A DNA stretch of 64,000 nucleotides, taken from NCBI GenBank assembly GCA_902464635.1, contig CABQKC010000008.1, positions 1,521 through 65,520 of the forward strand, read 5' to 3'. Position numbers and translations under genes: made by a program. Origin of the DNA: an uncultured Bacillales bacterium (GTDB taxonomy: Bacteria > Bacillota_I > Bacilli_A > RFN20 > CAG-826). Below are positions 2,697-47,477 of this stretch, piece by piece. The notes under the pieces were generated by a model. The model saw only the letters and a program-made list of their open reading frames with translations. It was not told the DNA's origin and searched no databases. Every line of letters begins with the position of its first letter. The stretch's first letter is position 1.

Positions 2697-3515
2697 TTAT
2701 TTCCCAGCATCTTTCTGCTTGAATAAACCCTTCTCAAATATGTCAGGATAGTATTCCTTATTAATTGAAATATCGAAAATATAATTAAAATAAATAACAT
2801 CAAAAATTAACACGAATGGATTAATTAAGATAAAATACAAGAATAAACACGCAGACAAAATAACGACGTTGCTTATCAAGAAAAGAAGAATTGGCGCTAA
2901 ATTAATTAACGAAACTAACAAAACTCTAAAATAATTCTTTATAAAAACCAATAGACTGTTATGAAAATAGTCCTTTATGGAATTTGAATATACAGATATT
3001 TGATTAACTAAAACCATTAGATATGGAAAGAAAACAAAAACAAGAGTTCCAACTGCAATTCCTTTAAACGCAATGTGGGCCGTAGGAAATAAACAAACCG
3101 AAATATTAAGAAAAAATAATATAGAAAAGATAAATATCGCTAAAAGCAAAGGAAGAAAAGACTCTTTAATACCTTGCACAAGATCATCCTTCAAGAAAAT
3201 TGGTTCTTCATACGAAAGGTGTTTAAGGTTTTTCAGGATTCCACCAAGAGGAATGCTAATTATCAAGATAGAAATAGAGGCAACAAGAAAAAAGAACAAG
3301 TTAGAAACGAAAAATTGATAGTTATCATTGCTTGATAAAACAAATACACGTCTTAATACTAAAATTGCAAGGAAAGGCAATATAGATAGGAAAAAGAAGA
3401 AACCCAATAGAATAAGCAAACGCCACCGCTGCTTTATCACATCAAAAAACAACTCCACTCTATTAGAAGGAAGCGTTGAACTACTTTTTGTTTTTTGTGC
3501 TTTTTTCTTTCTCAT
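2697..3515 (-). CDS. DUF624/YesL-family integral membrane protein (module copy 1, gene 4)
   Basis: About six hydrophobic helices. The N-terminal NRVELFFDVIKQRWRLLILLG motif is typical of YesL-like proteins. Its ATG overlaps the upstream stop (ATGA). Confidence 0.7.
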   Translation of the reverse strand: MRKKKAQKTKSSSTLPSNRVELFFDVIKQRWRLLILLGFFFFLSILPFLAILVLRRVFVLSSNDNYQFFVSNLFFFLVASISILIISIPLGGILKNLKHLSYEEPIFLKDDLVQGIKESFLPLLLAIFIFSILFFLNISVCLFPTAHIAFKGIAVGTLVFVFFPYLMVLVNQISVYSNSIKDYFHNSLLVFIKNYFRVLLVSLINLAPILLFLISNVVILSACLFLYFILINPFVLIFDVIYFNYIFDISINKEYYPDIFEKGLFKQKDAGK

Positions 3516-4120
3516 ATTTCTATAATCGATTTAACAATATCAAAAATTCCATCGTGTACGGAATTATTTAATTCCCCTCCATGGAGGCTAGATGCTGATA
3601 TAAAAAGATAATAAGAGCATTCTTCATATTTTATGTAATCAATAAGACCCCCTTTCTTTGATTCAAAATCGTATATTTTGATCCCATACTTTTTGCCGTT
3701 GTTCTCAAAGAAAGAGCAAGAAGACAAATCCATATATTTATTAATCACATCTAGTTTTAGTTCAGCATATTTTGCAATGTTGGATGTAAATGCGCCTATA
3801 GCAAAAATCGATTCAGGAATAATAGTAATATCCATGCTCCCGAGTGTATTTACATAATAAGTTAAAAATGTGTTGCTATTAGATTCATAACACGAAGCCT
3901 CTATTTGATAGATATAGTCTTGTTTTCCTTTTGAAACATAATCTACAAGCCTTGAGGTATCACACTCTTTTGCGCCTATTAACATTTCGACTTTATTCTC
4001 TTTTCTTGGAGAAGAAAGGGTTGCAAAAAGAATAGAAAGCAAAACTACCATCAAAAGGCTTAGAAATATAGAAGGCAAAACCGCCTTTTTAATCTGACCA
4101 CTATAATTAATCTTTTTCAT
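3512..4120 (-). CDS. N-terminally membrane-anchored protein with external ~165-aa domain, unknown function (module copy 1, gene 3)
   Basis: The ATG at 4120 gives MKKINYSGQIKK followed by one TM helix. This ATG is embedded in the Tyr-Glu codons at the end of the upstream gene. It is a paralog of 45601-46221. The ORF-track start at 4132 is a TTG. Confidence 0.6.
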   Translation of the reverse strand: MKKINYSGQIKKAVLPSIFLSLLMVVLLSILFATLSSPRKENKVEMLIGAKECDTSRLVDYVSKGKQDYIYQIEASCYESNSNTFLTYYVNTLGSMDITIIPESIFAIGAFTSNIAKYAELKLDVINKYMDLSSCSFFENNGKKYGIKIYDFESKKGGLIDYIKYEECSYYLFISASSLHGGELNNSVHDGIFDIVKSIIEI

Positions 4121-4586
4121 AAGCCACCACAAATGAATACGAAGTAATCAGTGTTACTTCTTCTTTTTCTTTGAAAGGCAATTCCTCGAGATTGCAGTCA
4201 AAATAGACAACCCATGTATCTATTTTGTCCTTTAAAACAATTTCTAACCCCTTGCCAAAAGAAGGTAAAGACACAATGCCGCCAATTGATGAAATAACAC
4301 CCTTGCACTTTACTCTTTCACCATAATAAACGTGTTTCAAATGTTTCAGTTCTTTTTTAAAAGGAATGAACAAGCCAAACATGCACAAAGAAAACAAAAA
4401 GAATAAAATCGTAGAAATAACAATGCTTAAAGGCAAAAGGATACCCTTATTCAAATAATTAATAAAAAGAGAAAAAAGAAAAACGCATAAAAGGAATGCT
4501 AATAGCAAAGCCAAAGAAACAAGAAGAGACAATTTAGTTTTTCTGCTATATATCCTTATAAAATCTTCATATGGCACTTTAATCAT
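4107..4586 (-). CDS. 2-TM hairpin protein with beta-rich ~85-aa cytoplasmic C-terminal domain, unknown function (module copy 1, gene 2)
   Basis: Basic N-terminus, two TM helices with a 4-aa loop, then KKELKHLKH (positive-inside). From the ATG at 4586 the product is 159 aa, the same length as its paralog 46214-46693. The ORF-track start at 4601 is a TTG. Confidence 0.6.
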   Translation of the reverse strand: MIKVPYEDFIRIYSRKTKLSLLVSLALLLAFLLCVFLFSLFINYLNKGILLPLSIVISTILFFLFSLCMFGLFIPFKKELKHLKHVYYGERVKCKGVISSIGGIVSLPSFGKGLEIVLKDKIDTWVVYFDCNLEELPFKEKEEVTLITSYSFVVAYEKD

Positions 4587-5313
4587 ATTTTTCACTTTCA
4601 AAATAAGGTTTAAGCTCCGAATTTAATAATTTGCTCGCTTCCTTTGGCGTGCAACTATATTTTATTTTCCCTTCTTCAATTACATAAATGGTATCAGCAA
4701 GAGATGTCGCTTCTTTTAGAGAGTGAGTTACATAAATAACAGTAGAATCAAATGTGCGCAAAACATTTTTTAACAAATGCCTGGCGCGATTTCTATTAAC
4801 TTCGTCCAAATTGGCTAATGGTTCATCAAAAAGAGCAATTTCCGGCCTTTTAACAATTGCCCTAGCAATACATGCTCTTTGCAATTCCCCTAAAGAGACT
4901 TGCTTTGGTTTTCTGCTAAGCAAAGCAAAAATATCCAGTTGTCTAGAAACGTCATATACGCGTTGCTTTATTTCTTCCTTTTCGGCACCGGCTAATTTTA
5001 AAGGATATGCAATGCTATCAAAAAGCGTCATATGGGGATACATAGAAAAATTTTGACTTACATAAGATAGATTCCTGTCTTTTGGAGGCACCCCTTTCAT
5101 CTCTTCAGTAGAAAACAATATATTTCCCTTATACTTAAAATCTAAACCTGCCAAAAGTCTTAATAATGTGGTTTTGCCAGAGCCAGAAGATCCTAGTATC
5201 GCACTAATTTTTCCATTGCAAAATAATGCATTTAAATTATCTAGCGCTAATACATTCATTCCTTTTTCACCTTTATAGGAATAACTTAGATTTTTAATTT
5301 CAATTGTAGGCAT
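4579..5313 (-). CDS. ABC transporter ATP-binding protein, MalK/UgpC-like NBD only, degenerate signature motif (module copy 1, gene 1)
   Basis: Walker A GSSGSGKTT, Q-loop VSQNFSMYPHMT, signature position VSLGELQR instead of LSGGQRQR, Walker B ALFDEP, H-loop VTHS. There is no C-terminal regulatory domain. Confidence 0.85.
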   Translation of the reverse strand: MPTIEIKNLSYSYKGEKGMNVLALDNLNALFCNGKISAILGSSGSGKTTLLRLLAGLDFKYKGNILFSTEEMKGVPPKDRNLSYVSQNFSMYPHMTLFDSIAYPLKLAGAEKEEIKQRVYDVSRQLDIFALLSRKPKQVSLGELQRACIARAIVKRPEIALFDEPLANLDEVNRNRARHLLKNVLRTFDSTVIYVTHSLKEATSLADTIYVIEEGKIKYSCTPKEASKLLNSELKPYFESEKYD

Positions 5314-10400: not shown

Positions 10401-10442
10401 ATCGACTGTCGTAGATAATTTTTCTTCGATGTTTAATTTCAT
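7401..10442 (-). CDS. GH38 alpha-mannosidase (cytoplasmic)
   Basis: IGHSHIDVAWLW is the GH38 N-terminal metal/catalytic motif. At 1013 aa with no signal peptide, its size and layout match Firmicute intracellular alpha-mannosidases. Confidence 0.85.
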   Translation of the reverse strand: MKLNIEEKLSTTVDALSRFSVSRYIFPIRVERSDCFEDDSANRKGCVFNEFKSPWIIFEENKYILFKASFDIKKEENQNAYLCIDTFINGVASTIRPQGLLYLNGELIQGIDINHHEVLLDDGHYEMLLDFYTHSFQFSFPLYFSIKYKDKRVEQAYYDFETILESLQMLEKDDQRYLDALPIVDNAMNILDFRQICSSSFFDSVTRAREYLKGKFFISFCGKQNNIINCIGHSHIDVAWLWDLKQTRLKSQRTFSTVLNLMDQYKDFTYFHTTPQLFEYLKEDNPSLFNKIKEKVKEGRFELDGSMWVEADCNLTSGESLVRQFLYGINYFKKEFDVDCSCLFLPDVFGYSAQLPQIMNKCGIKRFVTAKIGWNDTNRFPYDTFDWVGIDGSSVFTYLISTCDANPRIGIQDTTYTNYVGVITASQLLGTWNRYQQKELNNLTFTVFGYGDGGGGPTKEMIERESRFAYGLPGLGKTRLSTLGKTLDEIEKKFDEGCKKSKNRPFWNDELYFEYHRGTYTSVPRIKKNNRYAEFALSNVEVTSSINSLLSLNAYPKEELDKQWRVLLQNQFHDILPGSAIEKVYLDSDIQFASLFDFTSKTIESNLKLLSEIIKTNDDYLVFNPNSFTMDGYILLDGICHEVKGVPSFGYKTLSINKEEHGSVLIKDKTIENKYFKLTLNEKGEIISLYDKRLNMEFVKNNDPINAFYCFEDMPYQYDNWELTPYYYEKKYKIDSAAAFSYLDEGDRKGIRIVRKYLSSTIEQIIYLYSSIDRIDVVNNIDWHEKRQLLKIFFPLNFEYDNAQFDIQFGNLTRSMKPSNSFEEAKFEVCCQKWVDMSNDKLGLAVLNDCKYGYGIKDGVLSLTVLKSESYPYEDASMEVTTFTYSLYPHKYNYQRSKVIEEAYAVNRPLLYIHIDKNSLTKPTLESQKSFFELEGDGVYLETIKKAEEGEGFVCRLYEGHGKSNEAYLKPSFDFKAAYLCNLLEKEIKRLEVVDGRIKISLGKFEIGTIKII

Positions 10443-12727
10443 AAGACCCCCAACGATGTTGCATTATCTTTTCCAATCAAGGCAGTAATTTCATCATATG
10501 TGGAATAAATCTTTGTCTTATTTTCCTTAACATTAAAGCACACCAATGAGGAGGAGAAGTCATTGATTGTTACATTGTTCATCTTTAACAAACCTTGAAA
10601 AGAATTTCTATTGTCAATGTCATAATAAAGTTGTCCGATAGAAGAAGAATAGCCTATGTCCTTGCTGCCTTTATTAATAATCAAAACATTGTCCAAAGCA
10701 ATTACATCGATTCTATTTTCCTTATAACCTATCGTTCCAAGTAGACCGGTGTTATTAAATCTTTCATCGCCTTTTCCTAAAGAGACTTCAATAGTTAAGT
10801 TCGAATAATGGCCGCCATAAGAATAAGCTGTAACAAAATCACTTCCCCAATAGCTATCTAAACTGCTTCCTTTCATCGTCAAATCGAATACACGGGTCTC
10901 TTTTCCTGATGAATGAATCAAAGCACCATCCAAGGATGAAACAGTAAAATTAGAAATAGTTTTCTTATTTCCATCAACAAGTCCTTTAAAAGAATTGTCT
11001 TTCCCCTTTGTCGAATTAAGTCCAATTGAATTGTCCCTTGTCCATGTTTTTGAGCAATTGATATCGTTCAATAATTTAAAATAACCATATGTCGATAAAT
11101 TGCCCTTTATGTCAATTAAGTCACAGGTATATTTATTCATGCCAAACAAATCTTCTTCATTATTAATCAACAATGAATAAATGGTTAAATCCAAATAAGA
11201 TAATGTGCCGTTTTTATGAGTTAATATAAAACCAGTAGGTTCTTCTGCTGCCATGTATTTTTCAAAAATTAATGTATTATCTACAATAGACATTTCTTTA
11301 TTAGAAACTGAAAGAGCCTTTATAACGTCATTGTCCAAACGGTAACCATTTTTGACATCGCAAATGTCTTCTTTTACTTCAATTAGTTCATGGCAATTCA
11401 AGCAAAAAGCACCATTGCCTTCTTTTTTAAAATTGTGGCAAAGTGGTTTGGTATCAAACTCAATTGTTTCGCTACCATTTTTATAGATAGCATGCCCAGG
11501 AGTGACACAAGTTTCCATTATATTCTTGCTAGATAAAACATCTCTATCCAGCCCAAGCATGATCGATTTCATTGAATTAATGTCATCTTGACTAACACCA
11601 ATTACATTCACTAAAAATTTATTAAAGCACATCTCTAGTGAATCATCTTTATCACCGGCAGACTTCACCACATCCATAAAAGCGCCCCACCTGGCATCCA
11701 CTCCGCCACTGGTATCATATCTAGATAAATCAAAATCTGTTTGGTCTATATTACTAGCGCTTCTCCACCTGTTTCCTTGTTTAGAAAAACTTGTTAATTC
11801 GTAATCCCTAATCAAATCACCTTCGCTAACACCAAGTACGCCATTAATTAAAGCACATAAGGTACCTGTTCTATCCGCCCCGGCAGAACAATGAATATAA
11901 AATGGATAATTATTCCTATCTGCCAAATAGGAGAATATTTTCCTATTCATTGGCTTTGATGTTTCCTTAATGATTGCGTCATACATTTGATAAGGAAATT
12001 TGTCGTCTTTTAAATAAGTCCTGTCATACAAATCAAATGATTTTTCTGCAAAAGCGGCATATGTTTGTCCTAAATCATCTTCATCATTCCTTAAATCCAA
12101 TTCGGTTTTTACGCCCATGGTATTTCTAATCATGTCCAGGCCTTTGTCAGTTAAACAGTTATCTCCGTTTAATCTAGCACCTCTATAAATAAGCCCATAT
12201 TGGACTTCTTTGCCATTAGAAACATTCCACCCGCCTAAATCTCTAACATTGTTCGTGCCTTCGACATTCATATAACGAACAGTCAAATGCTTTTCTTTTT
12301 CTATTTTTATCTTTCCTTTTTTCAGGAAGTGGTTTGAATTATCTAAAACTTCATAATAATAAGTTTTACCTGGAATAGGGTCTTTTATTATATAGGAAGA
12401 TGAAACGGTTGAAATTTCATAATAAGAAGAAAAGTCTTCTTTATCTGAAATGGAAATAGTATACGGGCCTTCGTTAGAAGCTTCAAAGGAAATAACTACG
12501 GATTTTGAATAATCATACGTTGAAGTCAGGTTATAACGATAATGGTCATTCAGTGCTTGAAACTGTTTCTTTTGTTCTTCCTGGACAAGATAGTTTTTCA
12601 TTTCATCAGGAATTAAAGAAATAGTTTCTTCTTGATAAGGGATGCTTTCTTTAGAAGAAGAAATACTAGTTTCCCCATTACAAGAGACAAGAAGAAAAGG
12701 AATTGCTAAATAAATAATTTTTTTCAT
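10439..12727 (-). CDS. Surface lipoprotein with central protein-tyrosine-phosphatase-like domain (Y_phosphatase3/PF13350-like, CX5R)
   Basis: The ATG at 12727 gives MKKIIYLAIPFLLVSC (lipobox) with AAGGAGG upstream. NVRDLGGW...YRGARL...HCSAGADRTG is the PTP P-loop. A Cys/His knuckle and a ~300-aa C-terminal domain follow. Confidence 0.75.
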   Translation of the reverse strand: MKKIIYLAIPFLLVSCNGETSISSSKESIPYQEETISLIPDEMKNYLVQEEQKKQFQALNDHYRYNLTSTYDYSKSVVISFEASNEGPYTISISDKEDFSSYYEISTVSSSYIIKDPIPGKTYYYEVLDNSNHFLKKGKIKIEKEKHLTVRYMNVEGTNNVRDLGGWNVSNGKEVQYGLIYRGARLNGDNCLTDKGLDMIRNTMGVKTELDLRNDEDDLGQTYAAFAEKSFDLYDRTYLKDDKFPYQMYDAIIKETSKPMNRKIFSYLADRNNYPFYIHCSAGADRTGTLCALINGVLGVSEGDLIRDYELTSFSKQGNRWRSASNIDQTDFDLSRYDTSGGVDARWGAFMDVVKSAGDKDDSLEMCFNKFLVNVIGVSQDDINSMKSIMLGLDRDVLSSKNIMETCVTPGHAIYKNGSETIEFDTKPLCHNFKKEGNGAFCLNCHELIEVKEDICDVKNGYRLDNDVIKALSVSNKEMSIVDNTLIFEKYMAAEEPTGFILTHKNGTLSYLDLTIYSLLINNEEDLFGMNKYTCDLIDIKGNLSTYGYFKLLNDINCSKTWTRDNSIGLNSTKGKDNSFKGLVDGNKKTISNFTVSSLDGALIHSSGKETRVFDLTMKGSSLDSYWGSDFVTAYSYGGHYSNLTIEVSLGKGDERFNNTGLLGTIGYKENRIDVIALDNVLIINKGSKDIGYSSSIGQLYYDIDNRNSFQGLLKMNNVTINDFSSSLVCFNVKENKTKIYSTYDEITALIGKDNATSLGVL

Positions 12728-12728
12728 A

Positions 12729-15683: not shown

Positions 15684-15685
15684 AT

Positions 15686-18210: not shown

Positions 18211-19767
18211 TCAATTAAGTCCTGATTGTTTTAATATCGTCGCCCAATTTTTATTTAGATAATCCATATTTAGATTCAAGACTTCGCTTGGACTTTTGTT
18301 AAATGAGACCATGGCCTTGATGCAGTTATCGCCAACATTTCCCAAACCATTTGCAAACGTACGATTGATGCCGCCATAACAGAATATTTTGGCAGGAACT
18401 TGGAAGTTATAGGCAAGAATATTGTTTTCCTTTAATGCTTCGTTAACGTTTTTCTTAAAGTTTGAAATTTGAATTCCGGAATCGCTATAACCATTAGAAG
18501 GCTTGCTTCCCAAGACACCACCATTCATGGATTTGTGGAAAATTGATAACCCTTCATTTGAATACATGTATTTAACAAATTGCTTTGCCAAATCTATTTT
18601 CTTGCTATTTGAACAAATAACCAATTGATGGTCACATCCGCTCCTAAGATAAGACCCATTTTGAACAGCATCCTTTACTATCTTGACATCTTCATCGCTA
18701 ACCGAAGAAGGTTTTTCTTTGTTTACGCCACGTATAAATTTAACTACTTCACTCAAAGTTTTATCATCTTTAATAGATGAAATTCTTCCGTTATTGATAA
18801 TTGAAGAAACGATAGGCATATTGATAAATGAGGCATCATAACTCTTGACGTTAGTCTCGGTATCAAGCCAAGAGCCGTTGGCCATAAATAATGCCGTTTT
18901 ATTTCTTAAAAAGTCATTTTGGCAAGATTCGAATTGATAGTTCTTTGACTTTGGATGATGGAAATCATTGTTTACCAATAAATCCTGCGCCACTTGAAGC
19001 GATTCTACAATGCCGTCTCTAGCATAAAACGATGAAGTATGGTGTTCTTTACTAGCTTCAGGATCATCAGGATCTATTCCTTCGTTGAAATATTCCATAT
19101 TCTTGCTTCCTTCATATTGGCCAAACCAAATCGGGAGCAAAGATGTGTAATATTCGCTTTCATAAGAATAAACAAGTGGATAAATTTGATTACCTTCGTA
19201 TTTGAATTCCTTTTGTCTCACTTTTTCGCACAAAGCAATGAATTCATCTGTTGTATAAGGAATGTCATCATCTTTTAACCCTAAGGCATTCCAAATTGTA
19301 TTGTTCCTTACTATTCCTATAACACCATTCGCCCAGGAAAAACTAACATATTTATCACCTATCTTATTAGCGTCTATAAAGCATTGTTCCGTTCTATCTT
19401 CTATTGACCTCCCATCTTCGTCCTTGCTAGTCCAGACATCACTAACATCGACAAAATTGCCTTGATAGGCTAGTTTATAAAAGTCGGTAATTCTAGAGAA
19501 GAAAATATCCGTTCCATCTCCTCCTGCTTTGATTTTAGCTTGCAATGCTTCAACCCCAGCTTGGCCGTCGACTGCTTGGAAGTTTACTTTGATTCCTGTT
19601 TTTGCAGTAAAAGCAGAGACAATGTCTTCCATCCATTTGACTCCATATCCAAGCTTAACGCCTTCAATTTTTAAGGTGTCGCTTGTATCTTTGCTAGTAG
19701 AGCACGAAACTAGTCCCAGACTTATAAAAGACGAAGCCATTAACAATTTAATTTTCTTATTTTTCAT
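18211..19767 (-). CDS. CUT1 ABC transporter extracellular solute-binding lipoprotein (LplA-like, large)
   Basis: The ATG at 19767 gives MKNKKIKLLMASSFISLGLVSC, with GGAGG 8 nt upstream. It is about 518 aa and sits directly downstream of the two permease genes. Confidence 0.8.
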   Translation of the reverse strand: MKNKKIKLLMASSFISLGLVSCSTSKDTSDTLKIEGVKLGYGVKWMEDIVSAFTAKTGIKVNFQAVDGQAGVEALQAKIKAGGDGTDIFFSRITDFYKLAYQGNFVDVSDVWTSKDEDGRSIEDRTEQCFIDANKIGDKYVSFSWANGVIGIVRNNTIWNALGLKDDDIPYTTDEFIALCEKVRQKEFKYEGNQIYPLVYSYESEYYTSLLPIWFGQYEGSKNMEYFNEGIDPDDPEASKEHHTSSFYARDGIVESLQVAQDLLVNNDFHHPKSKNYQFESCQNDFLRNKTALFMANGSWLDTETNVKSYDASFINMPIVSSIINNGRISSIKDDKTLSEVVKFIRGVNKEKPSSVSDEDVKIVKDAVQNGSYLRSGCDHQLVICSNSKKIDLAKQFVKYMYSNEGLSIFHKSMNGGVLGSKPSNGYSDSGIQISNFKKNVNEALKENNILAYNFQVPAKIFCYGGINRTFANGLGNVGDNCIKAMVSFNKSPSEVLNLNMDYLNKNWATILKQSGLN

Positions 19768-19782
19768 ACTGTTTTCCTCCAA

Positions 19783-20745
19783 TTACCCTTTCAATCCACC
19801 TAAATGGACTTTTTCCATTATTGAATTTTGGAATATCAAGAAAAGGATAAGCATAGGTATTAAAGAAACGAATGTCGCGGCCATGAAGACCGGAATATTA
19901 TTCGAATTTGTATTAGCAAACAAATAGGAAGCAAAAGACAAATTTGGGTATTTTTGCATATAAAGCAAGGTATTCTCATAATCGTTCCAACCCATGATGA
20001 AATTCATTATGAATAGGGCTGAAACAGAAGGTAAAGCCATTGGCAACATTATTCTAAAAAACACTTTGTAATGATTTGCCCCATCTACAAAAGCCGCTTC
20101 TGCATATTCCCAAGACAATGACTTAAAGAATGAATACATATAGAAGAAATAACCACCATATAAGCCAATAGAAGTTATGGTAACTAAAGTAACGGTGCCT
20201 TTCAAATCAATACCGGTCCCCAAGAAATTCGAATATAGTTGATAAGTCGATGCTGCAGAGCCAAACAAAGGAATAATTGATACAAATAACCCTAGATTAT
20301 AGATAAATTTTGTAAGTCTAGAACGATAGAAGACCAATATATAACAGACACAGCAACTAGTAAAAATAGACAATGTAGAATAAAGGGTTGTTCTCCAAAT
20401 GGAATTCCAAGTAAGTTGAAGAAAAGAGAAATCCTTTAAAGATGCAGTTGAGGAAGTCAAATTAAACAAAGCTTCATAAAAGGCTTTAAAACTAATCTTA
20501 TCCCATTGAGGAATCCATAGTTTCCCTTCAAATTGAACTTCTTCATATGCCTCAGCATCACCAAGCAACGCCAACGATAATCCATAGAAAAAGAAATAGG
20601 CAACCAATATTGCATAAGCAAGAAGAATAATAAAAGCTATGATAAAGACAATCTTTTCAGACAATGATTTTTTGTCTTTTTTATATTCTCTGCTTAAAAA
20701 CCTAAGCGAATCTTTATCCATTTCATTTTTCCTTTCCATAAGCAA
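19783..20745 (-). CDS. CUT1 sugar ABC transporter permease (LplC/YtcP-like)
   Basis: Six TM helices. EAA-loop region AAFVDGANHYKVFFRIMLPMALP. The more likely start is the ATG at 20721, just after the upstream TGA. Confidence 0.85.
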   Translation of the reverse strand: MLMERKNEMDKDSLRFLSREYKKDKKSLSEKIVFIIAFIILLAYAILVAYFFFYGLSLALLGDAEAYEEVQFEGKLWIPQWDKISFKAFYEALFNLTSSTASLKDFSFLQLTWNSIWRTTLYSTLSIFTSCCVCYILVFYRSRLTKFIYNLGLFVSIIPLFGSAASTYQLYSNFLGTGIDLKGTVTLVTITSIGLYGGYFFYMYSFFKSLSWEYAEAAFVDGANHYKVFFRIMLPMALPSVSALFIMNFIMGWNDYENTLLYMQKYPNLSFASYLFANTNSNNIPVFMAATFVSLIPMLILFLIFQNSIMEKVHLGGLKG

Positions 20746-21721
20746 TACGTTTGACTATCAAAGCAGCTGGGAAGCTAACAACAGTCATGCATATCCCAAT
20801 TGCGGAAGCCATGTATATCCAGCCTTCATTAAAATTAGGAGATCTTGCAACCATATAATAAAGTAAATAACTAAGTGTAAATGTTTGATTCATGTTTCCG
20901 CTAGCAATTCCTGTATAGGCTAGAAGAGGACCACTCGTTCCTAAAAATCCCGCTACACACATTATTAAAATTGTTGATATAGTCGGCCAAATGGAAGGGA
21001 AGATTATATAAATAAGTTCCTTAAACCAGTTACAACCATCAAGTTCAGATGCCTCTATTACTTCTTTATTAATAGAATTCATTGCCCCATTTATAACAAT
21101 CATGTTTGTTCCAAAACCGAAAATAAGCCAGTAGAAAAGCAAGAAATAGATAGAACTTCCATCAGTCCTTAACCAAGGATTAACATAGTCAAAACCTTGT
21201 CCACTTAAGGCATGTAACAATCCACCTTCACCTATGATTTGCTTATAAAGCATTATTAAAGCCGAACTAGTTATGATGCTTGGTAAATAAATTACAAACC
21301 TAAAATATTTATATCCTTTAATCTTTTTATAAAGGAAATACCCAAAGAAAATAGAAATAGGCAATCCTAAGAAAATTCCAACAAAATTGAATAATAAGAC
21401 ATTAACAAGTGAGTTCCTTAAATTTGCGGAAGTCAAAATGGAAATACTTGAATCCTTCCCAAGGAAAAGACAATCAATTATTTCTTTGTAATTTGTAAAG
21501 TTAGGATCAAAATGGCCTTCTCCTCCTTCAAATCTCATAAAAGAATAGAAAAAGGATTGGAAATTTACATAAACATAAAAAATAAGGAAGAAAAGAATCG
21601 GCAAGAATAAAAACGAAAAGACGAAAAGACGTCTATCCCAAACGTGCCTTTTTTTCTTGTTGTATTTTTTTACTTCAACAAGATCTCTTTCTTCTTTGCT
21701 CAATTCTAGATTTTTAGCCAA
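20723..21721 (-). CDS. CUT1 sugar ABC transporter permease (LplB/YteP-like)
   Basis: TM-rich. EAA-loop region EASELDGCNWFKELIYIIFPSIWP. Confidence 0.85.
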   Translation of the reverse strand: MAKNLELSKEERDLVEVKKYNKKKRHVWDRRLFVFSFLFLPILFFLIFYVYVNFQSFFYSFMRFEGGEGHFDPNFTNYKEIIDCLFLGKDSSISILTSANLRNSLVNVLLFNFVGIFLGLPISIFFGYFLYKKIKGYKYFRFVIYLPSIITSSALIMLYKQIIGEGGLLHALSGQGFDYVNPWLRTDGSSIYFLLFYWLIFGFGTNMIVINGAMNSINKEVIEASELDGCNWFKELIYIIFPSIWPTISTILIMCVAGFLGTSGPLLAYTGIASGNMNQTFTLSYLLYYMVARSPNFNEGWIYMASAIGICMTVVSFPAALIVKRIAYGKEK

Positions 21722-21732
21722 AGTAAATCTCC

Positions 21733-23892
21733 TTATTTAAGTGCTACCAAAGGTGAATAATAAAGATAGTTATTGACCGTTGCAGTCCAACTATTTTGAT
21801 AAACAAATCTCGGTGATTTAAAAGAATTAGATTCTTTATTTTTATCTATTTCATATTTAAAGAAAGCAGTTCCTTTACCAAGCCCATCATCGTTATAGAA
21901 TCCAGGGAGCCCATAATTTGCCTTGTTATTCGCTAAATCTAAATCAATGTCATCATCAATCAAATAAGCATAGTCTCCATATTCTTTGGAATCGCCCCAC
22001 TCACATAAATCATTTTTGATTCCTAAGCATAAAGATGAATATGAAGAGAAATCCCGCTTTAAGTTATCAAGGGCAAATTCATAAATACTCATAGGTGACT
22101 TTGTCTTGAATTGAATCTTATAACATTGCCCGAAGTTAGAAGCAAACGAGGAGCTATAATCGAAGTCGATACCTAAAATACTGCCTTTATTCTTTTCTGC
22201 TTCAATAGGAGTAATCGTATCTATATCATTAATACCGTAAATAACCTCTCCTACCTTATCGTAGGTAGAAACTAATGAATTCAATTTATCAATGTCTAGT
22301 TTGGCTTTTAATTCTTCATCAATTGAAGAAAGCATCTTTCTTGCAAATGCCAATTTACTAATAAATTGCATCTTTTCATAATCTGCTTTTCCTTCTAAAG
22401 ATATAGGCAAAGAAGCAATAATCGAATTTACTTTTTTAAAATTGTAGTTATCTATATCTTTATAACCATAGATAGGAGTAATTCTCCAGCCTGTTGTAAT
22501 GGATGTATTAAATAATGCCCATCCAGAAGTAATCGTGTCAATTTTGGCATTAGCTTTATTGTCCAATATTGCTTTTGTTTCAACTTCTACTTTATGCCAT
22601 CCCTTACCATATGTAGTCTTAGAATCTCCAAAACGATTCCATGCAGTATCGCCTAAACACATATTAACTGCAGCATCACCTGGATTATAGAAATAGAAGA
22701 ACAATTTGTCGTATTCCCCAATAGTTTCTGAATTAATAGACTTATTAAAATAAATCTCGAGAGCGTAATTTTGCGTTGCCTGATTTAAAGTTAGATCCAA
22801 AGTTATTCCATAATTTTCATCGTTGCCTTTAACAAATGATTTTGGATAAGAATATTGTTCGCTATCGCCTCTTAACCTCAATGGTTCATCTTCTAAACCA
22901 AGCAAAGAAGAGTAAGAAGAAACTATCTTTTCCAAATTCCCAAGTTTATCGACATTTGTAACTTTTTCTTTCAATTCAGCAGGCAAAAAATCATATTCGG
23001 AACGTATATTTTGAATTTCTTCCTTTTTAGACAAGAAAAGATAATCGTTGTCATTGATTTTCAATAATGTATCAATTCTATTGACTAATTCTTTTGCCTT
23101 TTTGTCTATATTCGCAAGGATTTGATTATATTTCGATACAGTTTCTTCCTTCAAAAACGATTTTGACTTTTCAGTAAGGGAATCGTATTCATTTTTTAAA
23201 GAAACTATTTCTTCATATCCAATCGTATCCGGGTCGGCATTACTAACTTTATCTTCAAAGGCCTTAGCTGCTTGTCTATCTAACTCCACTAATATTTGCT
23301 GGTATTTTTCTTTTGTTTCATTATCCAAAAGTGCTTTTGCTTCTTCTGATAAAGAATCATATTCTTCTTGGATAGCTTGGATGGCCTCTGCAGTCAAAGT
23401 AGATAAATCAATACTCTTTACTTTATTAGCAAACCCTTCTGCTTCTTTCTTATATTCAATGCGTTTTATTGCAGAAAGTAATTTATCCAAATTTGTTACT
23501 AAACCTTTCGCGTCTTCATTTAAAGCATAATAAGCTTCCTTGGCTTTATTGACCGCTTCTTCCGAAGGGTCTTCTCCTAATGCACTTATCAAATCAATAA
23601 CCATCTTACTTGATTCGATATTTGCTATACGGGTCTCTTGTTTTGTTAGTTTAGATAAAATAGAAGAAGGAATATTTGCCTTATCTTCGCTAGATAAAGA
23701 ATCATAAGCCTTTCTCGCTGCTTCTATTTCTTCTTTAGTGGATGAATCGTTTAACGAATTCAACAAAGATATAACTTTGTCAGCCTCTACATAAGACGAT
23801 GAGGAAGATTCATCGTTGCAAGAAGAAAGCACAAAAGAGCCACCTAACAACGAAGTCATAAGAACAGTTGCAACTAAACGTTTTTTTCTCAT
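21733..23892 (-). CDS. Surface lipoprotein: N-terminal array of helical repeats plus two CBM-like modules
   Basis: The ATG at 23892 gives MRKKRLVATVLMTSLLGGSFVLSSC. At least five repeats of the type A-x3-Y-x2-L-x4-K-x2-(V/L)-x-N-x2-KL, then WRITPIYGYK. Confidence 0.65.
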   Translation of the reverse strand: MRKKRLVATVLMTSLLGGSFVLSSCNDESSSSSYVEADKVISLLNSLNDSSTKEEIEAARKAYDSLSSEDKANIPSSILSKLTKQETRIANIESSKMVIDLISALGEDPSEEAVNKAKEAYYALNEDAKGLVTNLDKLLSAIKRIEYKKEAEGFANKVKSIDLSTLTAEAIQAIQEEYDSLSEEAKALLDNETKEKYQQILVELDRQAAKAFEDKVSNADPDTIGYEEIVSLKNEYDSLTEKSKSFLKEETVSKYNQILANIDKKAKELVNRIDTLLKINDNDYLFLSKKEEIQNIRSEYDFLPAELKEKVTNVDKLGNLEKIVSSYSSLLGLEDEPLRLRGDSEQYSYPKSFVKGNDENYGITLDLTLNQATQNYALEIYFNKSINSETIGEYDKLFFYFYNPGDAAVNMCLGDTAWNRFGDSKTTYGKGWHKVEVETKAILDNKANAKIDTITSGWALFNTSITTGWRITPIYGYKDIDNYNFKKVNSIIASLPISLEGKADYEKMQFISKLAFARKMLSSIDEELKAKLDIDKLNSLVSTYDKVGEVIYGINDIDTITPIEAEKNKGSILGIDFDYSSSFASNFGQCYKIQFKTKSPMSIYEFALDNLKRDFSSYSSLCLGIKNDLCEWGDSKEYGDYAYLIDDDIDLDLANNKANYGLPGFYNDDGLGKGTAFFKYEIDKNKESNSFKSPRFVYQNSWTATVNNYLYYSPLVALK

Positions 23893-23900
23893 AAAAATCC

Positions 23901-25436
23901 TCACTTTATCCTTTTTGTCGTATCCAAATCAAAGAAATGCACTTTATCTAAATTAAAGAATATTTCGGTATTATCGTTATCAATAACCTCATTTTCGGCA
24001 TCGTCTTTAATAGAAATGTCTTGACCGTCTATCGAACAATAATAAATGTATTCATTACCTAATAGTTCGGAATCTTTTATAACCGCATTTATAGGGAAAG
24101 AATAGGAAGAACCTAAACTAGAAGTTTTTATATTTTCAGGTCTAATACCTAATGCAATTTTCTTACCTTCATAATTTTTCTCTAGAAGTTTTTTATGTAT
24201 GTCATCTATTTCAATGCTTACATGTTTTTCGCCTTCAAAAACAAATTTCCCCTTTAAATACGTACCGGTTAAAAAATTCATGGCCGGAGAGCCAATAAAC
24301 CCGCCGACAAACATATTCTCTGGCTCGTTATATGCTTCTTTTGGGGTTGCAATTTGTTGTATGCGACCATCTTTCATAATAACTATCCGATCGGCTAAAG
24401 TCATAGCCTCGGTTTGGTCGTGGGTAACATAAATCGTGGTTGCCCCTACTTTTTTATGAATATTAGCAATCTCGCTTCTAGTCTGGACACGTAGTTTAGC
24501 ATCCAAGTTAGAAAGGGGTTCATCCATCAAGAATACTTTAGGGTTTCTAACAATTGCTCTACCTAATGCCACTCTTTGCCTTTGCCCACCAGAAAGTTCA
24601 GCCGGTTTCCTATTTAGATATTTATATAAATCCAAGTTACCTGATGCTTTTAAAACCTGGTAATCTCTTTCAAATACAGTCAAGTTCCTACTCTTTTGGA
24701 TCTGAACCTCGTTTTGTTTTAAATACTCTATCTCTTTACTCAACGACTTTATTTGGTTTTTCTTATATTCAAGATCACGCTTCATGGTATCTAAAAGCAT
24801 TTTGTTTTTAGACTCTTGATCCTTGCTATTTTCTTTCTGAATCAGTTTATTGACTCTAGAAATCCCGCTTTCCAATTTTTTAATTTCTTTTTGTTTCTTG
24901 GCTATTATGCCTTCATCAATTCCTATGACGGGTTTCCTTAAATTAAAGACCTGCTCATATTTTTGTAACAGCAAAAGCCTTAATTCTTCTTCTTTTGATA
25001 GGTATTCATTATTATTTGGGCTTTTTGAAAGTAATTTTGATATTTTCTTATATTCTTTTCTAATGGTTTCGTCTAATAATGCATTTGCCTGAGAGTCATA
25101 TTCATAAACCCCACGCAACGCCTTTCTTATCCTCAGCCCAAATGACATATTTTGATATACAGTCATATGTGGATAAAGAGCATAAGACTGAAACACCATG
25201 GCAATATGCCTGTTCATTGGAGAAACATAATTAACTAGTTTGCCATCAATATAAAGTTCGCCGCTAGTGATATCTTCTAGCCCTGCAATCATCCTTAATG
25301 CAGTGGATTTTCCACATCCAGAAGGGCCTACGAAAACTATAAATTCTTTATCTTTTACTTCTAAATTAAAATCAAAAACAGCTTGAACATTGTTGTCGTA
25401 AATCTTGTTAACGTCAATAAACTTTAAAGTAGCCAT
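23901..25436 (-). CDS. MsmK/UgpC/MalK-type sugar ABC ATPase with ~140-aa coiled-coil insertion in the helical subdomain
   Basis: GPSGCGKST, FQSYALYPHMTV, LSGGQRQRVA, LMDEPLSNLD, VTHD and a C-terminal TOBE-like domain. About 180 residues lie between FGL and LSGGQ, against roughly 35-40 in E. coli MalK. Confidence 0.85.
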   Translation of the reverse strand: MATLKFIDVNKIYDNNVQAVFDFNLEVKDKEFIVFVGPSGCGKSTALRMIAGLEDITSGELYIDGKLVNYVSPMNRHIAMVFQSYALYPHMTVYQNMSFGLRIRKALRGVYEYDSQANALLDETIRKEYKKISKLLSKSPNNNEYLSKEEELRLLLLQKYEQVFNLRKPVIGIDEGIIAKKQKEIKKLESGISRVNKLIQKENSKDQESKNKMLLDTMKRDLEYKKNQIKSLSKEIEYLKQNEVQIQKSRNLTVFERDYQVLKASGNLDLYKYLNRKPAELSGGQRQRVALGRAIVRNPKVFLMDEPLSNLDAKLRVQTRSEIANIHKKVGATTIYVTHDQTEAMTLADRIVIMKDGRIQQIATPKEAYNEPENMFVGGFIGSPAMNFLTGTYLKGKFVFEGEKHVSIEIDDIHKKLLEKNYEGKKIALGIRPENIKTSSLGSSYSFPINAVIKDSELLGNEYIYYCSIDGQDISIKDDAENEVIDNDNTEIFFNLDKVHFFDLDTTKRIK

Positions 25437-25566: not shown

Positions 25567-26481
25567 TCACTTTCTACATTTTTCGTTATAAAAAGATAAC
25601 ATCTTTTCAAACCAAGAAGACGCCACTGTGTTGGTAGCAATTCCATAGCCATGCACATCGCTAGGGTAGGTAATATAAGAGTGCTCTATTTTCGCTTCGT
25701 TTAAAGTCTTATCCATCAACATTGAATTATGCACGTCCACCACGTTGTCCTTATCACATTGCCATATAAACGTTCTTGGAAAATCTTTATCAGCATGCAG
25801 CTCCAATGAATATCTCTTTTTATCTTCTAAAGAAGGGTTGTTCCCAAGAAGATTTCTTCTTGTGGCTAAACTGCAATATGGTTCAAGCATAGTTACAACA
25901 GGATAAGAAAGGACTAGCAAGCCAGGTTTTGGTAGGCAAGTCGTTTTATACCCAAAATTTGAAGTCCCTAGTAAACCAACCAAATGTGCTCCAGCAGAGA
26001 AGCCAGCAGCAATATAATCTTTAATGTCTATATTTAGTTCTTCTTTGTTTGAATCCAAATACCTAATCAAATTATTTAAATCGTTGATAGCGTGAATGGC
26101 TTTATTCTTAATTCCGTAAGTAAAAGTCAAAGCAGAGAACCCCTCTTTATAAAGCCTAACCGCAACAGGCAAAGACTCTGGCAAAGTGCAAACGCATTCA
26201 TATCCGCCACCAGCCACAACAATGGCTAGTTTGCTTGGTTTATCTTGCTTCAATAATAAGAAGCTAGAATCCTCGCTTAATTCTTTATAAACGATGTGTT
26301 TTGTTTCAGATAGATTAATTAGATAATTTAAACAATCAATAGACTCTTTTTCTGGCCAAGGATTTAGGTCGCTAGTAACAATTTTTTTGTCTTCATTAGC
26401 AAAAGAGGCCAAGTGAAAAGCGTATTTTCCTAAAATCGGATCAGTAAACACATCATCATAAGTAGATTCAAAATTGAACAT
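25567..26481 (-). CDS. Alpha/beta-hydrolase fold esterase (carbohydrate esterase/deacetylase candidate)
   Basis: GFSAGAHL is a G-x-S-x-G nucleophile elbow. VVAGGGY is an oxyanion-region motif. A late DKDNVVD...H is consistent with a catalytic triad. No signal peptide. Confidence 0.7.
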   Translation of the reverse strand: MFNFESTYDDVFTDPILGKYAFHLASFANEDKKIVTSDLNPWPEKESIDCLNYLINLSETKHIVYKELSEDSSFLLLKQDKPSKLAIVVAGGGYECVCTLPESLPVAVRLYKEGFSALTFTYGIKNKAIHAINDLNNLIRYLDSNKEELNIDIKDYIAAGFSAGAHLVGLLGTSNFGYKTTCLPKPGLLVLSYPVVTMLEPYCSLATRRNLLGNNPSLEDKKRYSLELHADKDFPRTFIWQCDKDNVVDVHNSMLMDKTLNEAKIEHSYITYPSDVHGYGIATNTVASSWFEKMLSFYNEKCRK

Positions 26482-37436: not shown

Positions 37437-37447
37437 CTTCTTTCTCC

Positions 37448-38947: not shown

Positions 38948-38964
38948 ATGACCTCCTAAAAGAA

Positions 38965-44711: not shown

Positions 44712-45614
44712 TTATTTCTTTTTTATCCTATAGATACCTTTATCTACTAGTTTGGGATAAGAAGTCTTGTTTATCACTTTGTCGAATACATATGTTGAAT
44801 AAATGTAGAAAAGAAGAAATCCTAGAGGAAAATAAAGAAGGAAATATAAAGCCAAGGTTATAAGAACAACATATAAGTTGCCTAATAACAAAAGGAATAA
44901 GGGAGCGATTAAAACCAAAGAGAAACCTAATGTTGGTAAAGATGATGCGAAATATAACAAATAGCCATTTCTAAAATTAACCCACATAGAATTTTTATAA
45001 ATCGGGGTAGAGCAAATCGATAATAAGAAAGAAGGCATTATAAAGATAAAAAGCAATATCAACGGGGCAAAAAACGCCATTGTGGAAACAAAACCTTTTG
45101 ATCCGCTAGAAAGAAGGAAGATTACTAAAATATTCGATAAAGTAAATATAAAGGAAGTTAACAAAACCAAAATAAAGGTTTGCCCTATGTTTTCTTTTAT
45201 TCCTTTAAAGAAATCGGCTTTGAAATCTAACATTTCATAATAAACCATTATCTTAAATATTTTTTCTAGCCCTGCTAAAGGAATAGAAAGAAGTAATAAA
45301 CACAATAGATTAGCGATACTAAAGGCAACGTTAAGAATGAATAGATTTGAATGATATATTCCCGCTTCTATTTTTCCTTCTAAATAAGAAGCATATAAAG
45401 ATGAAGACATTATGTTTAAGCCTAGAATTGAAGCAATTAAAGGCAAAGAGAACAAAAACATAATCGCCCCACTAATAAGCAATGCTCTCCACCTAGATTT
45501 AAATAAATCGGCGAAGACCTCTACCCTATTATGAGGCAAATTCTCGATTGTAAAATCCTTGTTAGAATAATTTACAAATATACTATTTTTCTTCTTTCCC
45601 TTATTCTTTTTCAT
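44712..45614 (-). CDS. DUF624/YesL-family integral membrane protein (module copy 2, gene 4)
   Basis: NRVEVFADLFKSRWRALLISG motif and about six TM helices. The ATG is embedded in Tyr-Glu codons near the end of the upstream gene. Confidence 0.7.
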   Translation of the reverse strand: MKKNKGKKKNSIFVNYSNKDFTIENLPHNRVEVFADLFKSRWRALLISGAIMFLFSLPLIASILGLNIMSSSLYASYLEGKIEAGIYHSNLFILNVAFSIANLLCLLLLSIPLAGLEKIFKIMVYYEMLDFKADFFKGIKENIGQTFILVLLTSFIFTLSNILVIFLLSSGSKGFVSTMAFFAPLILLFIFIMPSFLLSICSTPIYKNSMWVNFRNGYLLYFASSLPTLGFSLVLIAPLFLLLLGNLYVVLITLALYFLLYFPLGFLLFYIYSTYVFDKVINKTSYPKLVDKGIYRIKKK

Positions 45615-46221
45615 AATTTAGCAAAGCCCTTGCTGCTTTTACACCGTTATCGGTCTTCCCATTAGTATCTTTATGAAACGACATGTTGTTCATAGATGTC
45701 TTATTAAATACAAGGATATATTCCTTGCTTAATTCATCTTCATAACTGATGAAATCATTTAAAAACAATGAACCATCTTCTTTAAATAATTTAAGCCCAT
45801 ATGTTTTAGAATCAAGGGAATAACAGTCGTATTTATCCCCAAATGTTTCTTTTAGAAGGCTTTCATCTATCTCTAAACATAATGAGGAAATAATGTTCTT
45901 ATCAAAATATCCAATAGGCAAAAGAAAGAAGTCACAAGAATGTTGCCCAACCGAAGATATCATTGTCCCAAACAAAGAATAAGAAGGATCGCTAGTATAG
46001 ACATCTATTTGCTTTATTGTCTCTATTTCTTCCTTTTCGATAACGGAGGTAAATAAAGATTCATCCCCACTTTTTACGCCAACAAAAATGCCTACTTTTT
46101 CATTTGCTTTATATCTAACTTTTGCAGGAACTAACCAAGTCCATAAAGCAATTGATAAAACAATCAAAAGCAAATAGACAAAGCCGTATCTAAATATGTG
46201 ACGCCTAATAGATTTATTCAT
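45601..46221 (-). CDS. N-terminally membrane-anchored protein with external domain (module copy 2, gene 3)
   Basis: MNKSIRRHIFRYG plus one TM helix. Blocks shared with 3512-4120: K-V-x-(M/I)-(L/F)-(I/V)-G-(A/V)-K after the TM anchor, D(I/F)x(I/L)(I/L)P, and (K/T)YG(I/L)K(I/L). Confidence 0.6.
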   Translation of the reverse strand: MNKSIRRHIFRYGFVYLLLIVLSIALWTWLVPAKVRYKANEKVGIFVGVKSGDESLFTSVIEKEEIETIKQIDVYTSDPSYSLFGTMISSVGQHSCDFFLLPIGYFDKNIISSLCLEIDESLLKETFGDKYDCYSLDSKTYGLKLFKEDGSLFLNDFISYEDELSKEYILVFNKTSMNNMSFHKDTNGKTDNGVKAARALLNYEKE

Positions 46222-46693
46222 ATTTGATTGATGTCACATATCGATTTTGAATACGTGCCTCCACTATTTTCTTGTTTTCTATACATGGAATTAATCTTTT
46301 TTCTATATAGAAAGATTTTGTTTTTCCTTCACTAACTATCTTGAATGTAACAAATTCAACCTCATGAACAAATATAGAAATATCTTCAATTTCAAATGAT
46401 TCAATTTGATAGGTTGAAATCGATACTTTTCTTATTTCCTTAATCAGGGATAACTTTCCAATTAAAGGAGCTAGATAATATGTTCCTATAAAAAACAAGC
46501 TACATAGAAGCAAAGAGAAAAAGAGGCATAGAAGAACTTCATAAACTACATAATTGCTTCTATTAGCAAGGAAATAAAATAACAAAGATATCCCTATTCC
46601 AAAAAGAAGAACGATACCCATGATTATAGAAACAAGCTTAATCCTGCTTCTAACCTTAATTTCTTCTTCTTGAGAATAGAACTTACTTTCCAT
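46214..46693 (-). CDS. 2-TM hairpin protein with beta-rich cytoplasmic C-terminal domain (module copy 2, gene 2)
   Basis: The ATG at 46693 (MESKFYSQ) gives 159 aa, the same as copy 1. Same topology and the same Y-E C-terminal end. The ORF-track start at 46744 would overlap the ATPase gene by 62 nt. Confidence 0.6.
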   Translation of the reverse strand: MESKFYSQEEEIKVRSRIKLVSIIMGIVLLFGIGISLLFYFLANRSNYVVYEVLLCLFFSLLLCSLFFIGTYYLAPLIGKLSLIKEIRKVSISTYQIESFEIEDISIFVHEVEFVTFKIVSEGKTKSFYIEKRLIPCIENKKIVEARIQNRYVTSIKYE

Positions 46694-47477
46694 TTCTAAT
46701 TTCCTCGATATCAAAAGTATCGTTGCTAAATAAAGAAGAAACAAATTCGGTCTTTGGTTTCCTAATTATTTCATCTACTGTCCCTACTTGTTCAACTTTT
46801 CCTTCGTTTAATATGATTAGCCTATCAGAAAAAGCACTAGCTTCTTTTAAATCGTGTGTAATAAAAAGAAAAGTTCCATCTATTAAACTAGATAATTCCC
46901 TTAAGCTATGCCAAATGTCTTGTTTGCTAGCTACATCAATAGATGCAAAAGGCTCGTCAAATATAAATAAAGAAGCATTGTTTGCCATGGCCCTAGCAAG
47001 TGCAACTCTTTGTTGTTGACCTATGGAAAGTTGCTTTATTCTTCTTGGCAAAAGCAATTCAATATCAAATTTCTTGGCCAATTCCAAAACTCTTTCCTTT
47101 ATATAATTAGAATCCATCCTTAGATTCTTCAAAGGAAAAGCAATATTATCGTAAACAGTCATCGAAGGATAAAGGATGCGTCTTTGGGCTATATAGGCCA
47201 AATGTCTTTCTCTTAAGGGAATTGATTCGATATCATTCCCGTCTAAATAGATATTCCCGCCATAATCCTGAAGGCCTAATATAATTTTGACTAAAGTAGA
47301 TTTGCCTGCCCCTGATGGGCCAAGCAAAGAAACAAATTCACCTTCATATATTTCAAAAGAAACGTGTCTTAAAACAATGTTGTGTTTCTTTCTTTTGATA
47401 TATTCGCTAGAAACATCATCAAATTTTAGTTTTATTCTTTTATTGGACTCTGTTTGCGAAGTACGAGATGGCACCAT
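46683..47477 (-). CDS. ABC transporter ATP-binding protein, MalK-like NBD only, degenerate signature (module copy 2, gene 1)
   Basis: GPSGAGKST, IAQRRILYPSMT, LSIGQQQR at the signature position, IFDEP, ITHD. The start is uncertain: ATG at 47477 or TTG at 47516. Either overlaps the ROK gene 3' end. Confidence 0.8.
   Translation of the reverse strand: MVPSRTSQTESNKRIKLKFDDVSSEYIKRKKHNIVLRHVSFEIYEGEFVSLLGPSGAGKSTLVKIILGLQDYGGNIYLDGNDIESIPLRERHLAYIAQRRILYPSMTVYDNIAFPLKNLRMDSNYIKERVLELAKKFDIELLLPRRIKQLSIGQQQRVALARAMANNASLFIFDEPFASIDVASKQDIWHSLRELSSLIDGTFLFITHDLKEASAFSDRLIILNEGKVEQVGTVDEIIRKPKTEFVSSLFSNDTFDIEEIRNGK

Follow-up and report, generated by a model that had tools for sequence, protein, structure and literature searches.

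What does an ATPase of the sugar-importer type do when it is encoded together with three membrane proteins and no canonical permease? The question is raised by a locus of an uncultured Bacillales bacterium of the gut, Candidatus Enteromonas-like (assembly GCA_902464635.1, contig CABQKC010000008.1, positions 1,521 to 65,520), a stretch of 64,000 nt that we analysed as a whole and refer to as the window; coordinates below are window positions unless a locus number (L) is given. Four consecutive genes encode an ATP-binding cassette (ABC) nucleotide-binding domain (NBD), a protein with a transmembrane (TM) hairpin, a protein with an N-terminal anchor and an ectodomain, and a protein with six TM helices (6-TM protein). 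These genes, here called the module, are a conserved, co-inherited unit well beyond this genome. They may form an ABC machine of a hitherto undescribed kind that is linked to glycan utilisation.

Of the two copies in the window (Table 1), copy 1 had been described in an earlier, sequence-only reading as four genes overlapping by 8-23, 14 and 4 nt. The four open reading frames (ORFs), all on the minus strand, and their junctions bear this out. The NBD stop codon (TAA 4579) overlaps the hairpin start (ATG 4586) by 8 nt, or by 23 nt if the hairpin gene starts with TTG 4601; the hairpin stop at 4107 overlaps the start of the anchored protein (ATG 4120) by 14 nt; finally, the TGA at 3512 and the 6-TM ATG at 3515 form an ATGA motif with a 4-nt overlap. 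NCBI gene calls of identical proteins give the hairpin protein 159 aa, under the name 'hypothetical protein'. The gene upstream (7404-5317), which encodes a DUF6259 glycosidase-like protein, ends at a distance of 3 nt from the NBD ATG (5313). Promoter and terminator scans around copies 1 and 2 yielded nothing exceeding shuffle expectation.

Hydropathy assigns no TM segment to the NBD, two to the hairpin protein, one to the anchored protein and about six to the 6-TM protein. The hairpin protein is predicted by the positive-inside rule to be N-in/C-in, with a C-terminal cytoplasmic domain of ~75 aa, while the anchored protein is predicted to combine one N-terminal TM helix with an extracytoplasmic alpha/beta domain of ~165 aa. 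Such topologies match what had been proposed for both proteins, namely a 159-aa N-in/C-in hairpin (hydropathy, positive-inside rule and public gene call agree) and a ~202-aa protein with a single N-terminal anchor (the ORF has 202 codons' worth of protein and one TM segment). The proposal that no canonical ABC permease gene belongs to the module also held: a Pfam search of all module proteins found no BPD_transp_1 permease, and the Foldseek matches of the 6-TM model described below include no ABC transmembrane domain (TMD).

Evidence that the four genes belong together comes from their recurrence. The order NBD, hairpin, anchored protein, 6-TM protein was kept in 25 of 25 instances with upstream sequence available, which represent about 14 lineages, and the starts and stops of the genes mostly overlap or abut; the expectation of the sequence-only reading that the unit recurs outside this genome is thus supported. 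The contexts were sampled with relatives down to 23-27% identity in the 6-TM protein, with a bias to the query's relatives (a search with a nine-sequence alignment gave only seven genome and three metagenome loci), and their hairpin and anchored partners reach down to 16-22% identity. The one seeming exception is L023, whose NBD gene is interrupted. Within L023 3921-5915, a 373-aa transposase-like ORF has been inserted, and the last 60 residues of the NBD, from the H-loop onward, form a separate ORF after it. The relatives come from Candidatus Enteromonas, from metagenome-assembled genomes of uncultured Bacilli or 'Mollicutes' and from other metagenomic contigs. Paralogous modules occur in different glycan loci of one genome, and in L015, L021 and L024 the module is an operon of its own.

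The four families have also diverged together. Their pairwise-identity matrices correlate with r of 0.84-0.90 (Mantel p<=5e-4), and a comparison with a Ca. Enteromonas relative gave ratios of non-synonymous to synonymous substitution (dN/dS) of 0.08-0.13 for all four genes, which is purifying selection. The NBD is the most conserved member (median identity 44%, against 17-29% for the other three), and the ectodomain protein (22%) and the hairpin protein (17%) evolve fast. Apart from the lack of a known function for three of the proteins, nothing specific speaks for the idea that the genes are functionally unrelated neighbours brought together by chance or by operon hitch-hiking. We consider it highly improbable, given that the order is kept 25 times out of 25 at protein identities down to 16-26%, with overlapping frames, co-divergence and purifying selection on all four genes.

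Copy 2, which had been placed at 44712-47477 in the same gene order, was confirmed by its ORFs, its junctions and comparisons of one copy with the other. Its genes overlap by 11, 8 and 14 nt, and the NBD start overlaps the end of an upstream ROK gene by 38 nt. According to BLAST, the two NBDs share 32% identity (E 2e-50), the 6-TM proteins 33% (E 5e-27) and the anchored proteins 27% (E 1e-7), and the hairpin proteins have no BLAST-detectable likeness. Leave-one-out family profiles nevertheless recovered the copy 2 hairpin protein at full length (21.9 bits) and the copy 2 anchored protein with 101 bits. Copies 1 and 2 are old, diverged paralogues.

By its sequence matches, the NBD is to be placed in the MalK/MsmX/UgpC/PotA clade, with the regulatory C-terminal domain missing. 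In copy 1, ABC_tran is the sole Pfam domain, OB_MalK and TOBE being absent, and residues 17-226 align with the NBD cores of MalK, MsmX, SugC and PotA. This agrees with the earlier description of a 244-aa NBD that has no MalK-type regulatory domain. The best matches in the PDB are MalK, MsmX and SugC (E 1e-52 to 1e-41; P. horikoshii MalK, 182 bits). Among NCBIfam models, GlcV (213 bits) and UgpC (198 bits) scored highly and PotA was also matched; since the alignment is confined to the N-terminal ~225 residues, the GlcV and UgpC scores stay below the equivalog thresholds. The FtsE model reached 133 bits and the ATPase models of energy-coupling factor (ECF) transporters 130 bits, compared with 213 bits for GlcV. 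Copy 1 has intact Walker A, Q-loop, Walker B and H-loop motifs, and the majority of module NBDs retain all catalytic motifs, including LSGGQ.

The 6-TM protein belongs to a large family. An exhaustive profile search gave 1,198 clusters at 50% identity, 403 of them at E<=1e-30 and nearly all full length (270-300 aa); inspection covered the stronger third of the clusters, and the Pfam scan used 150 representatives. No Pfam or NCBIfam model was found to cover the 6-TM, hairpin or anchored protein, and a profile search of an indexed database returned 30 strong 6-TM members, none with Pfam annotation. The sequence-only reading had called this a DUF624-YesL protein. The 272 aa and six TM helices stand; the DUF624 label is only partly borne out, since the window 6-TM proteins gave no match to Pfam PF04854 (gathering score 24.2 bits) even at E<=10, which rules out direct membership, and eight close relatives gave none at E<=10 either. 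Still, DUF624 was the commonest weak Pfam match in the family (10 of 150 representatives, best E 5.4e-5; the next membrane family was matched by 3), and one such match maps onto the region TM2-loop-TM3. Such weak single-sequence matches suggest that the family is at best a remote relative of DUF624, outside current models. BPD_transp_1 was matched by none of the 150 members even at E<=10, and a tblastn search of plasmids with one family member found no match.

Two family members, P0012 and P0049 (590 and 598 aa), consist of a 6-TM protein fused to a C-terminal BD-FAE/alpha-beta-hydrolase esterase. If these fusions are real, the 6-TM C-terminus and a soluble esterase would lie on the same side of the membrane. 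The window also has a stand-alone BD-FAE esterase (25567-26481, minus strand), just upstream of the copy 1 operon.

AlphaFold2 modelled the 6-TM protein well from a 30-sequence alignment (mean predicted local distance difference test, pLDDT, 88.9; predicted template modelling score, pTM, 0.85), as six long TM helices preceded by an amphipathic helix at the N-terminus. Foldseek found nothing significant for this model in the PDB and no ABC TMD among the 50 best matches; superpositions gave TMq 0.50 with 9qu3 (E 0.18), TMq 0.47 with 9f63 and TM-scores of 0.40-0.46 with 3tx3. We took the topology from the same model (pLDDT 88.9) when mapping conservation over the 150 representatives. The cytoplasmic N-terminal segment, loop 2 (TM2-TM3) and the C-terminal segment are the most constrained (2.35-2.45 bits per position), in comparison with 1.4-1.9 bits for the TM helices and 0.65-0.96 bits for the first two outer loops. 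Nearly all invariant residues are cytoplasmic: P16, R19, F23, D25, K28, D111, G115, K117, Y176, D248, N252 and G263. The conserved motifs of this face are LPxNRxExFxDxxK in the amphipathic helix, YxEPxF..DFxxGxK between TM2 and TM3, YxN between TM4 and TM5, and FDxxINKxxYPxxxxKG at the C-terminus. Such a distribution, along with an NBD that is the best conserved member of the module, fits a conserved cytoplasmic partner and favours one complex; among the indirect clues to the mechanism, it is the strongest.

The two small proteins say less about themselves. For the anchored-protein family, a profile search of the PDB gave no match at E<=10 and a Pfam search at E<=10 gave scattered single matches only; its AlphaFold2 model, from a five-sequence alignment, is unusable (pLDDT 39). 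The hairpin profile found only TM-composition matches in the PDB, and hhalign against the C-terminal oligonucleotide/oligosaccharide-binding (OB) region of the window's MalK-type ATPase gave a probability of 0.3%, which is not significant. Weak matches of the hairpin protein to DUF4131 (six of 13, best E 6.8e-4) all cover the TM hairpin only, with residues ~24-100 aligned to positions 8-83 of the 165-position profile. The idea of an OB/TOBE-like hairpin tail was therefore dropped. Kinship with the N-terminal DUF4131 region of ComEC (TM and OB fold) was likewise rejected; its OB part is not covered, and the match is probably compositional.

Overall, the module is probably an ABC system with an undescribed set of membrane partners. 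Our leading explanation, which we hold tentatively, is that the four gene products assemble into a single membrane complex driven by ATP, a non-canonical ABC module that serves the glycan-utilisation locus in which it is encoded. A dimer of the truncated MalK-clade ATPase would dock on the conserved cytoplasmic face of the 6-TM protein, made up of the N-terminal amphipathic helix, the TM2-TM3 and TM4-TM5 loops and the C-terminal segment. The hairpin and single-pass proteins would join through their TM helices, and the cytoplasmic tail of the hairpin protein may contact the ATPase, which has no C-terminal domain of its own. The fast-evolving ectodomain of the single-pass protein might provide locus-specific recognition of an external glycan-derived ligand, and fast evolution of the ectodomain and hairpin proteins is what one would expect of locus-specific recognition elements. 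As its output, the complex could take up a product of glycan breakdown that acts as inducer of the locus, or could sense this product at the expense of ATP; either would fit the AraC-type regulators usually found beside the module. Gene structure, conservation of the unit, NBD clade, lack of a canonical permease, and the 6-TM fold class with the location of its conserved residues are what the data show; protein-protein contacts, direction of action and substrate are all what we infer. The module may also form an accessory or regulatory complex of the neighbouring importers, the alternative named in the sequence-only reading. More doubtful is the structural form of this proposal, namely a MalK-clade ATPase working with a DUF624-like, CysZ/CTL-like 6-TM subunit outside the known ABC TMD folds and with two obligatory small partners.

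The surroundings of the module are always glycan-utilisation genes (GH38, GH20, GH2, DUF4838, DUF6259, Y_phosphatase3 fusions and ROK kinases), and the loci concern mannosides, N-glycans and hexosaminides in uncultured gut Bacilli (RF39, Ca. Enteromonas) and other gut Bacillota. Features of the window are collected in Table 1.

Table 1. The two module copies and accompanying transport and regulatory genes in the window.
Feature	Position	Strand	Length	Basis or remark
Copy 1 NBD gene	4579..5313	-	244 aa	MalK-clade ABC ATPase by its matches, NBD core only; ORF and ABC_tran match
Copy 1 hairpin gene	4107..4586	-	159 aa	ORF, junction, TM segments
Copy 1 N-anchored gene	3512..4120	-	202 aa	ORF, junction, one TM segment
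Copy 1 6-TM gene	2697..3515	-	272 aa	ORF, hydropathy, AlphaFold2
Copy 2 NBD gene	46683..47477	-	264 aa	From ATG 47477; signature LSIGQ
Copy 2 hairpin gene	46214..46693	-	159 aa	From ATG 46693
Copy 2 N-anchored ectodomain gene	45601..46221	-	206 aa	
Copy 2 6-TM gene (DUF624-like)	44712..45614	-	300 aa	
CUT1 importer of the copy 1 operon	18211..25436	-		Solute-binding protein (SBP), two permeases, 723-aa unknown protein, 511-aa ATPase
CUT1 SBP	18211-19782	-	523 aa	
Two BPD_transp_1 permeases, LplB/LplC-type	19783-21721	-		Pfam
MalK-type ATPase with OB_MalK domain	23901-25436	-	511 aa	
YesN-type response regulator with AraC helix-turn-helix	44630-43038	-		Directly downstream of copy 2; Pfam
YesM/LytS-type histidine kinase (His_kinase/dCache)	43041-41317	-		Downstream of copy 2; Pfam
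Peripla_BP_4 sensor-like binding protein	41327-40317	-		Downstream of copy 2; Pfam

Several observations weigh against a complex of this kind. The lineage of copy 1 has a degenerate signature motif, VSLGE in place of LSGGQ. Pfam and PDB searches assign no fold to the ectodomain or to the hairpin tail. No EAA-like loop or type I fold was found in the 6-TM protein, whose Foldseek neighbours (CTL1, PNS1, CysZ) are weak, with a best E of 0.18. Its TM helices contain few conserved polar residues, which disfavours a substrate path through the protein. The module NBD is closest to the NBDs of CUT1 sugar importers, whose docking sites are the EAA loops of type I permeases. Finally, L001, L013, L015 and L021 have CUT1 permeases at most 7 kb away from the module, and no ATPase is visible beside them.

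The last two points would be expected if the NBD were an extra energiser of LplB/LplC-type CUT1 permeases, whether encoded close by or elsewhere, with the three membrane proteins tethering, regulating or sequestering it, an explanation that we consider rather unlikely. All best PDB and NCBIfam matches of the NBD are indeed CUT1/type I importer NBDs, LplABC-type SBP/permease sets are often near the module (those of the four loci just named with no ATPase visible), and the 6-TM model has no ABC TMD fold. Parallels from Bacillus count the same way. The CUT1 systems of the B. subtilis rhamnogalacturonan cluster have no ATPase of their own, and stand-alone DUF624 proteins of Bacillus adjoin CUT1 systems that borrow MsmX. 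The DUF624 genes of B. subtilis are located in the rhamnogalacturonan (yes) cluster (PMC6120924). However, a full-length MalK-type ATPase is already present near the module in two lineages, L020 and copy 1 of the window. In the latter, the complete CUT1 importer is encoded further upstream in the same run of co-directional genes, so that the NBD is surplus to it, as the earlier reading had pointed out on account of the importer's own MsmK-type ATPase; this ATPase has 511 aa and an OB_MalK domain. Moreover, no CUT1 permease is encoded within 7 kb of the module in L014, L016 and L022, and in all 25 instances the linkage of the NBD is with the three membrane genes and not with permeases. Given these three lineages and the modules in operons of their own, the NBD is tied to the three membrane proteins, not to a permease pair.

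The 511-aa ATPase is itself unusual in carrying an insertion of ~150 residues (approximately 107-259) that separates the Q-loop region from the signature motif. A similar ATPase of 520 aa, with ABC_tran, OB_MalK and TOBE_2, is encoded in L020.

The regulatory genes around the module bear on a further alternative, to which we give a slightly lower chance: a non-transporting, ATP-driven device for signalling or mechanotransmission, comparable to FtsEX or to signalling from BceAB to BceS. ATP hydrolysis would move or read the ectodomain, and its state would be passed to AraC or YesMN regulators or to extracellular enzymes. In most lineages, AraC-family regulators or a YesN/YesM pair adjoin the module; the AraC-type ones (L001, L003-5, L013, L015, L021 and L024) carry a cupin or PocR domain for ligand binding and lack any membrane part, so that a direct hand-over at the membrane is not obvious. 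Copy 2 is followed by the YesN/YesM pair, a layout that parallels yesL-yesM-yesN of B. subtilis, and the Peripla_BP_4, kinase and response-regulator genes together have the layout of a three-component sugar sensor and resemble XylFII-LytS-YesN systems. The sensor-like fast evolution of the ectodomain and hairpin proteins would suit such a device, as would the lack of conserved polar residues in the 6-TM helices. CTL1 and PNS1, which are among the nearest folds, may not be transporters at all according to one recent paper (PMC13160678), a point that speaks for signalling and against our favoured complex. On the other hand, Pfam found no FtsX/MacB-type domain in the module, and the NBD scores higher against importer NBDs (213 bits) than against FtsE (133 bits).

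Other genes of the window are worth recording. After the sensor genes downstream of copy 2, there is a CUT2-type importer (35754-40165, minus strand) with a binding protein, a 499-aa double ATPase and a 560-aa BPD_transp_2 permease. A gene pair of ROK and GH20 hexosaminidase (Glyco_H_20C_C) occurs twice on the minus strand, at 31148-33824 and at 47440-50338, the latter directly upstream of module copy 2. A Y_phosphatase3 (tyrosine-phosphatase-like) protein of ~700-770 aa, an odd domain for glycan degradation, is encoded either within the module's operon or divergently from the module (window 10439-12751, minus strand; L001 4215-6419; L013 204-2291). The minus-strand ORFs of 986, 723 and 501 aa (12729-15689, 21733-23904 and 53690-55195) have no Pfam match at E<=1e-5, and one of 551 aa (26528-28183, minus strand) has none at E<=1e-3; these large unmatched ORFs in glycan operons may represent undescribed glycoside hydrolase families. 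The end of copy 1 faces convergent plus-strand genes (1345-2652 and 146-1256), which encode a 435-aa HipA_C-like kinase, the tail of a histidine kinase and a 259-aa response-regulator-like protein and which, by their orientation, are unrelated to the glycan operon.

Several known systems invite comparison with the module. CUT1/type I importers (MalFGK2, MsmEFGK, LplABC with MsmX) share its NBD clade and its setting in glycan loci. They differ in having an OB/TOBE domain, BPD_transp_1 permeases with an EAA loop and SBP_bac_1/8 proteins, none of which was found in the module, and type I TMDs in the PDB were absent from the 50 best Foldseek matches of the 6-TM model. ECF transporters resemble the module in combining small membrane proteins with ABC ATPases and no classical solute-binding protein. 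We rejected an ECF assignment: Pfam and Foldseek gave no CbiQ/EcfT or S-component, and the ATPase scores 130 versus 213 bits. A type VII system (FtsEX/MacB/LolCDE) was set aside as well (no FtsX/MacB_PCD match; FtsE 133 versus GlcV 213 bits), as was a defence-type (ABC-3C) system, for which there was no supporting match.

MlaFEDB and LptB2FGC each combine a short NBD, a subunit of ~6 TM helices, an N-anchored ectodomain subunit and a cytoplasmic accessory. The module is like them in this division of labour only; no sequence or fold kinship with them was found, its NBD is of another clade, and its host is a monoderm RF39-like bacterium that, unlike theirs, has no outer membrane. CTL1/SLC44A1, PNS1 and CysZ share 11-14% identity with the 6-TM protein (E>=0.18), and CTL1 and PNS1 are larger; to our knowledge, none of the three works with an ABC ATPase. 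ABC systems are sorted by a few membrane-domain folds, and NBD clades track these folds closely. A sugar-importer NBD obligatorily linked to three membrane proteins with no recognisable ABC permease fold would either break this rule or reveal a new way of regulating CUT1 importers, and if the more doubtful structural form of our proposal is true, the 6-TM-based complex would define a structurally new class of ABC machines. The 6-TM component is not uncommon (1,198 clusters), yet it is annotated as 'hypothetical', the label that public records give to all three membrane proteins. The module may also matter for the sensing or uptake of host and dietary glycans by gut bacteria with reduced genomes.

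A further comparison is with the DUF624/YesL family, to which YesL, YesV and YteU of B. subtilis belong. Its members are, like the 6-TM protein, multi-pass membrane proteins of glycan loci, and yesL precedes a YesM/YesN-type two-component system, as copy 2 does. The 6-TM family differs in its greater length (270-300 aa), in having distinct conserved cytoplasmic motifs at both termini and in its constant association with an NBD and a pair of small membrane proteins, company that is not known for YesL-type genes. We found no functional study of DUF624, YesL, YesV or YteU in the searchable literature, and the module offers an entry point to this family. Should the structural form of our proposal be right, the DUF624/YesL superfamily would gain its first functional handle, and for its stand-alone members the prediction would be that they rely on MsmX-type ATPases in trans.

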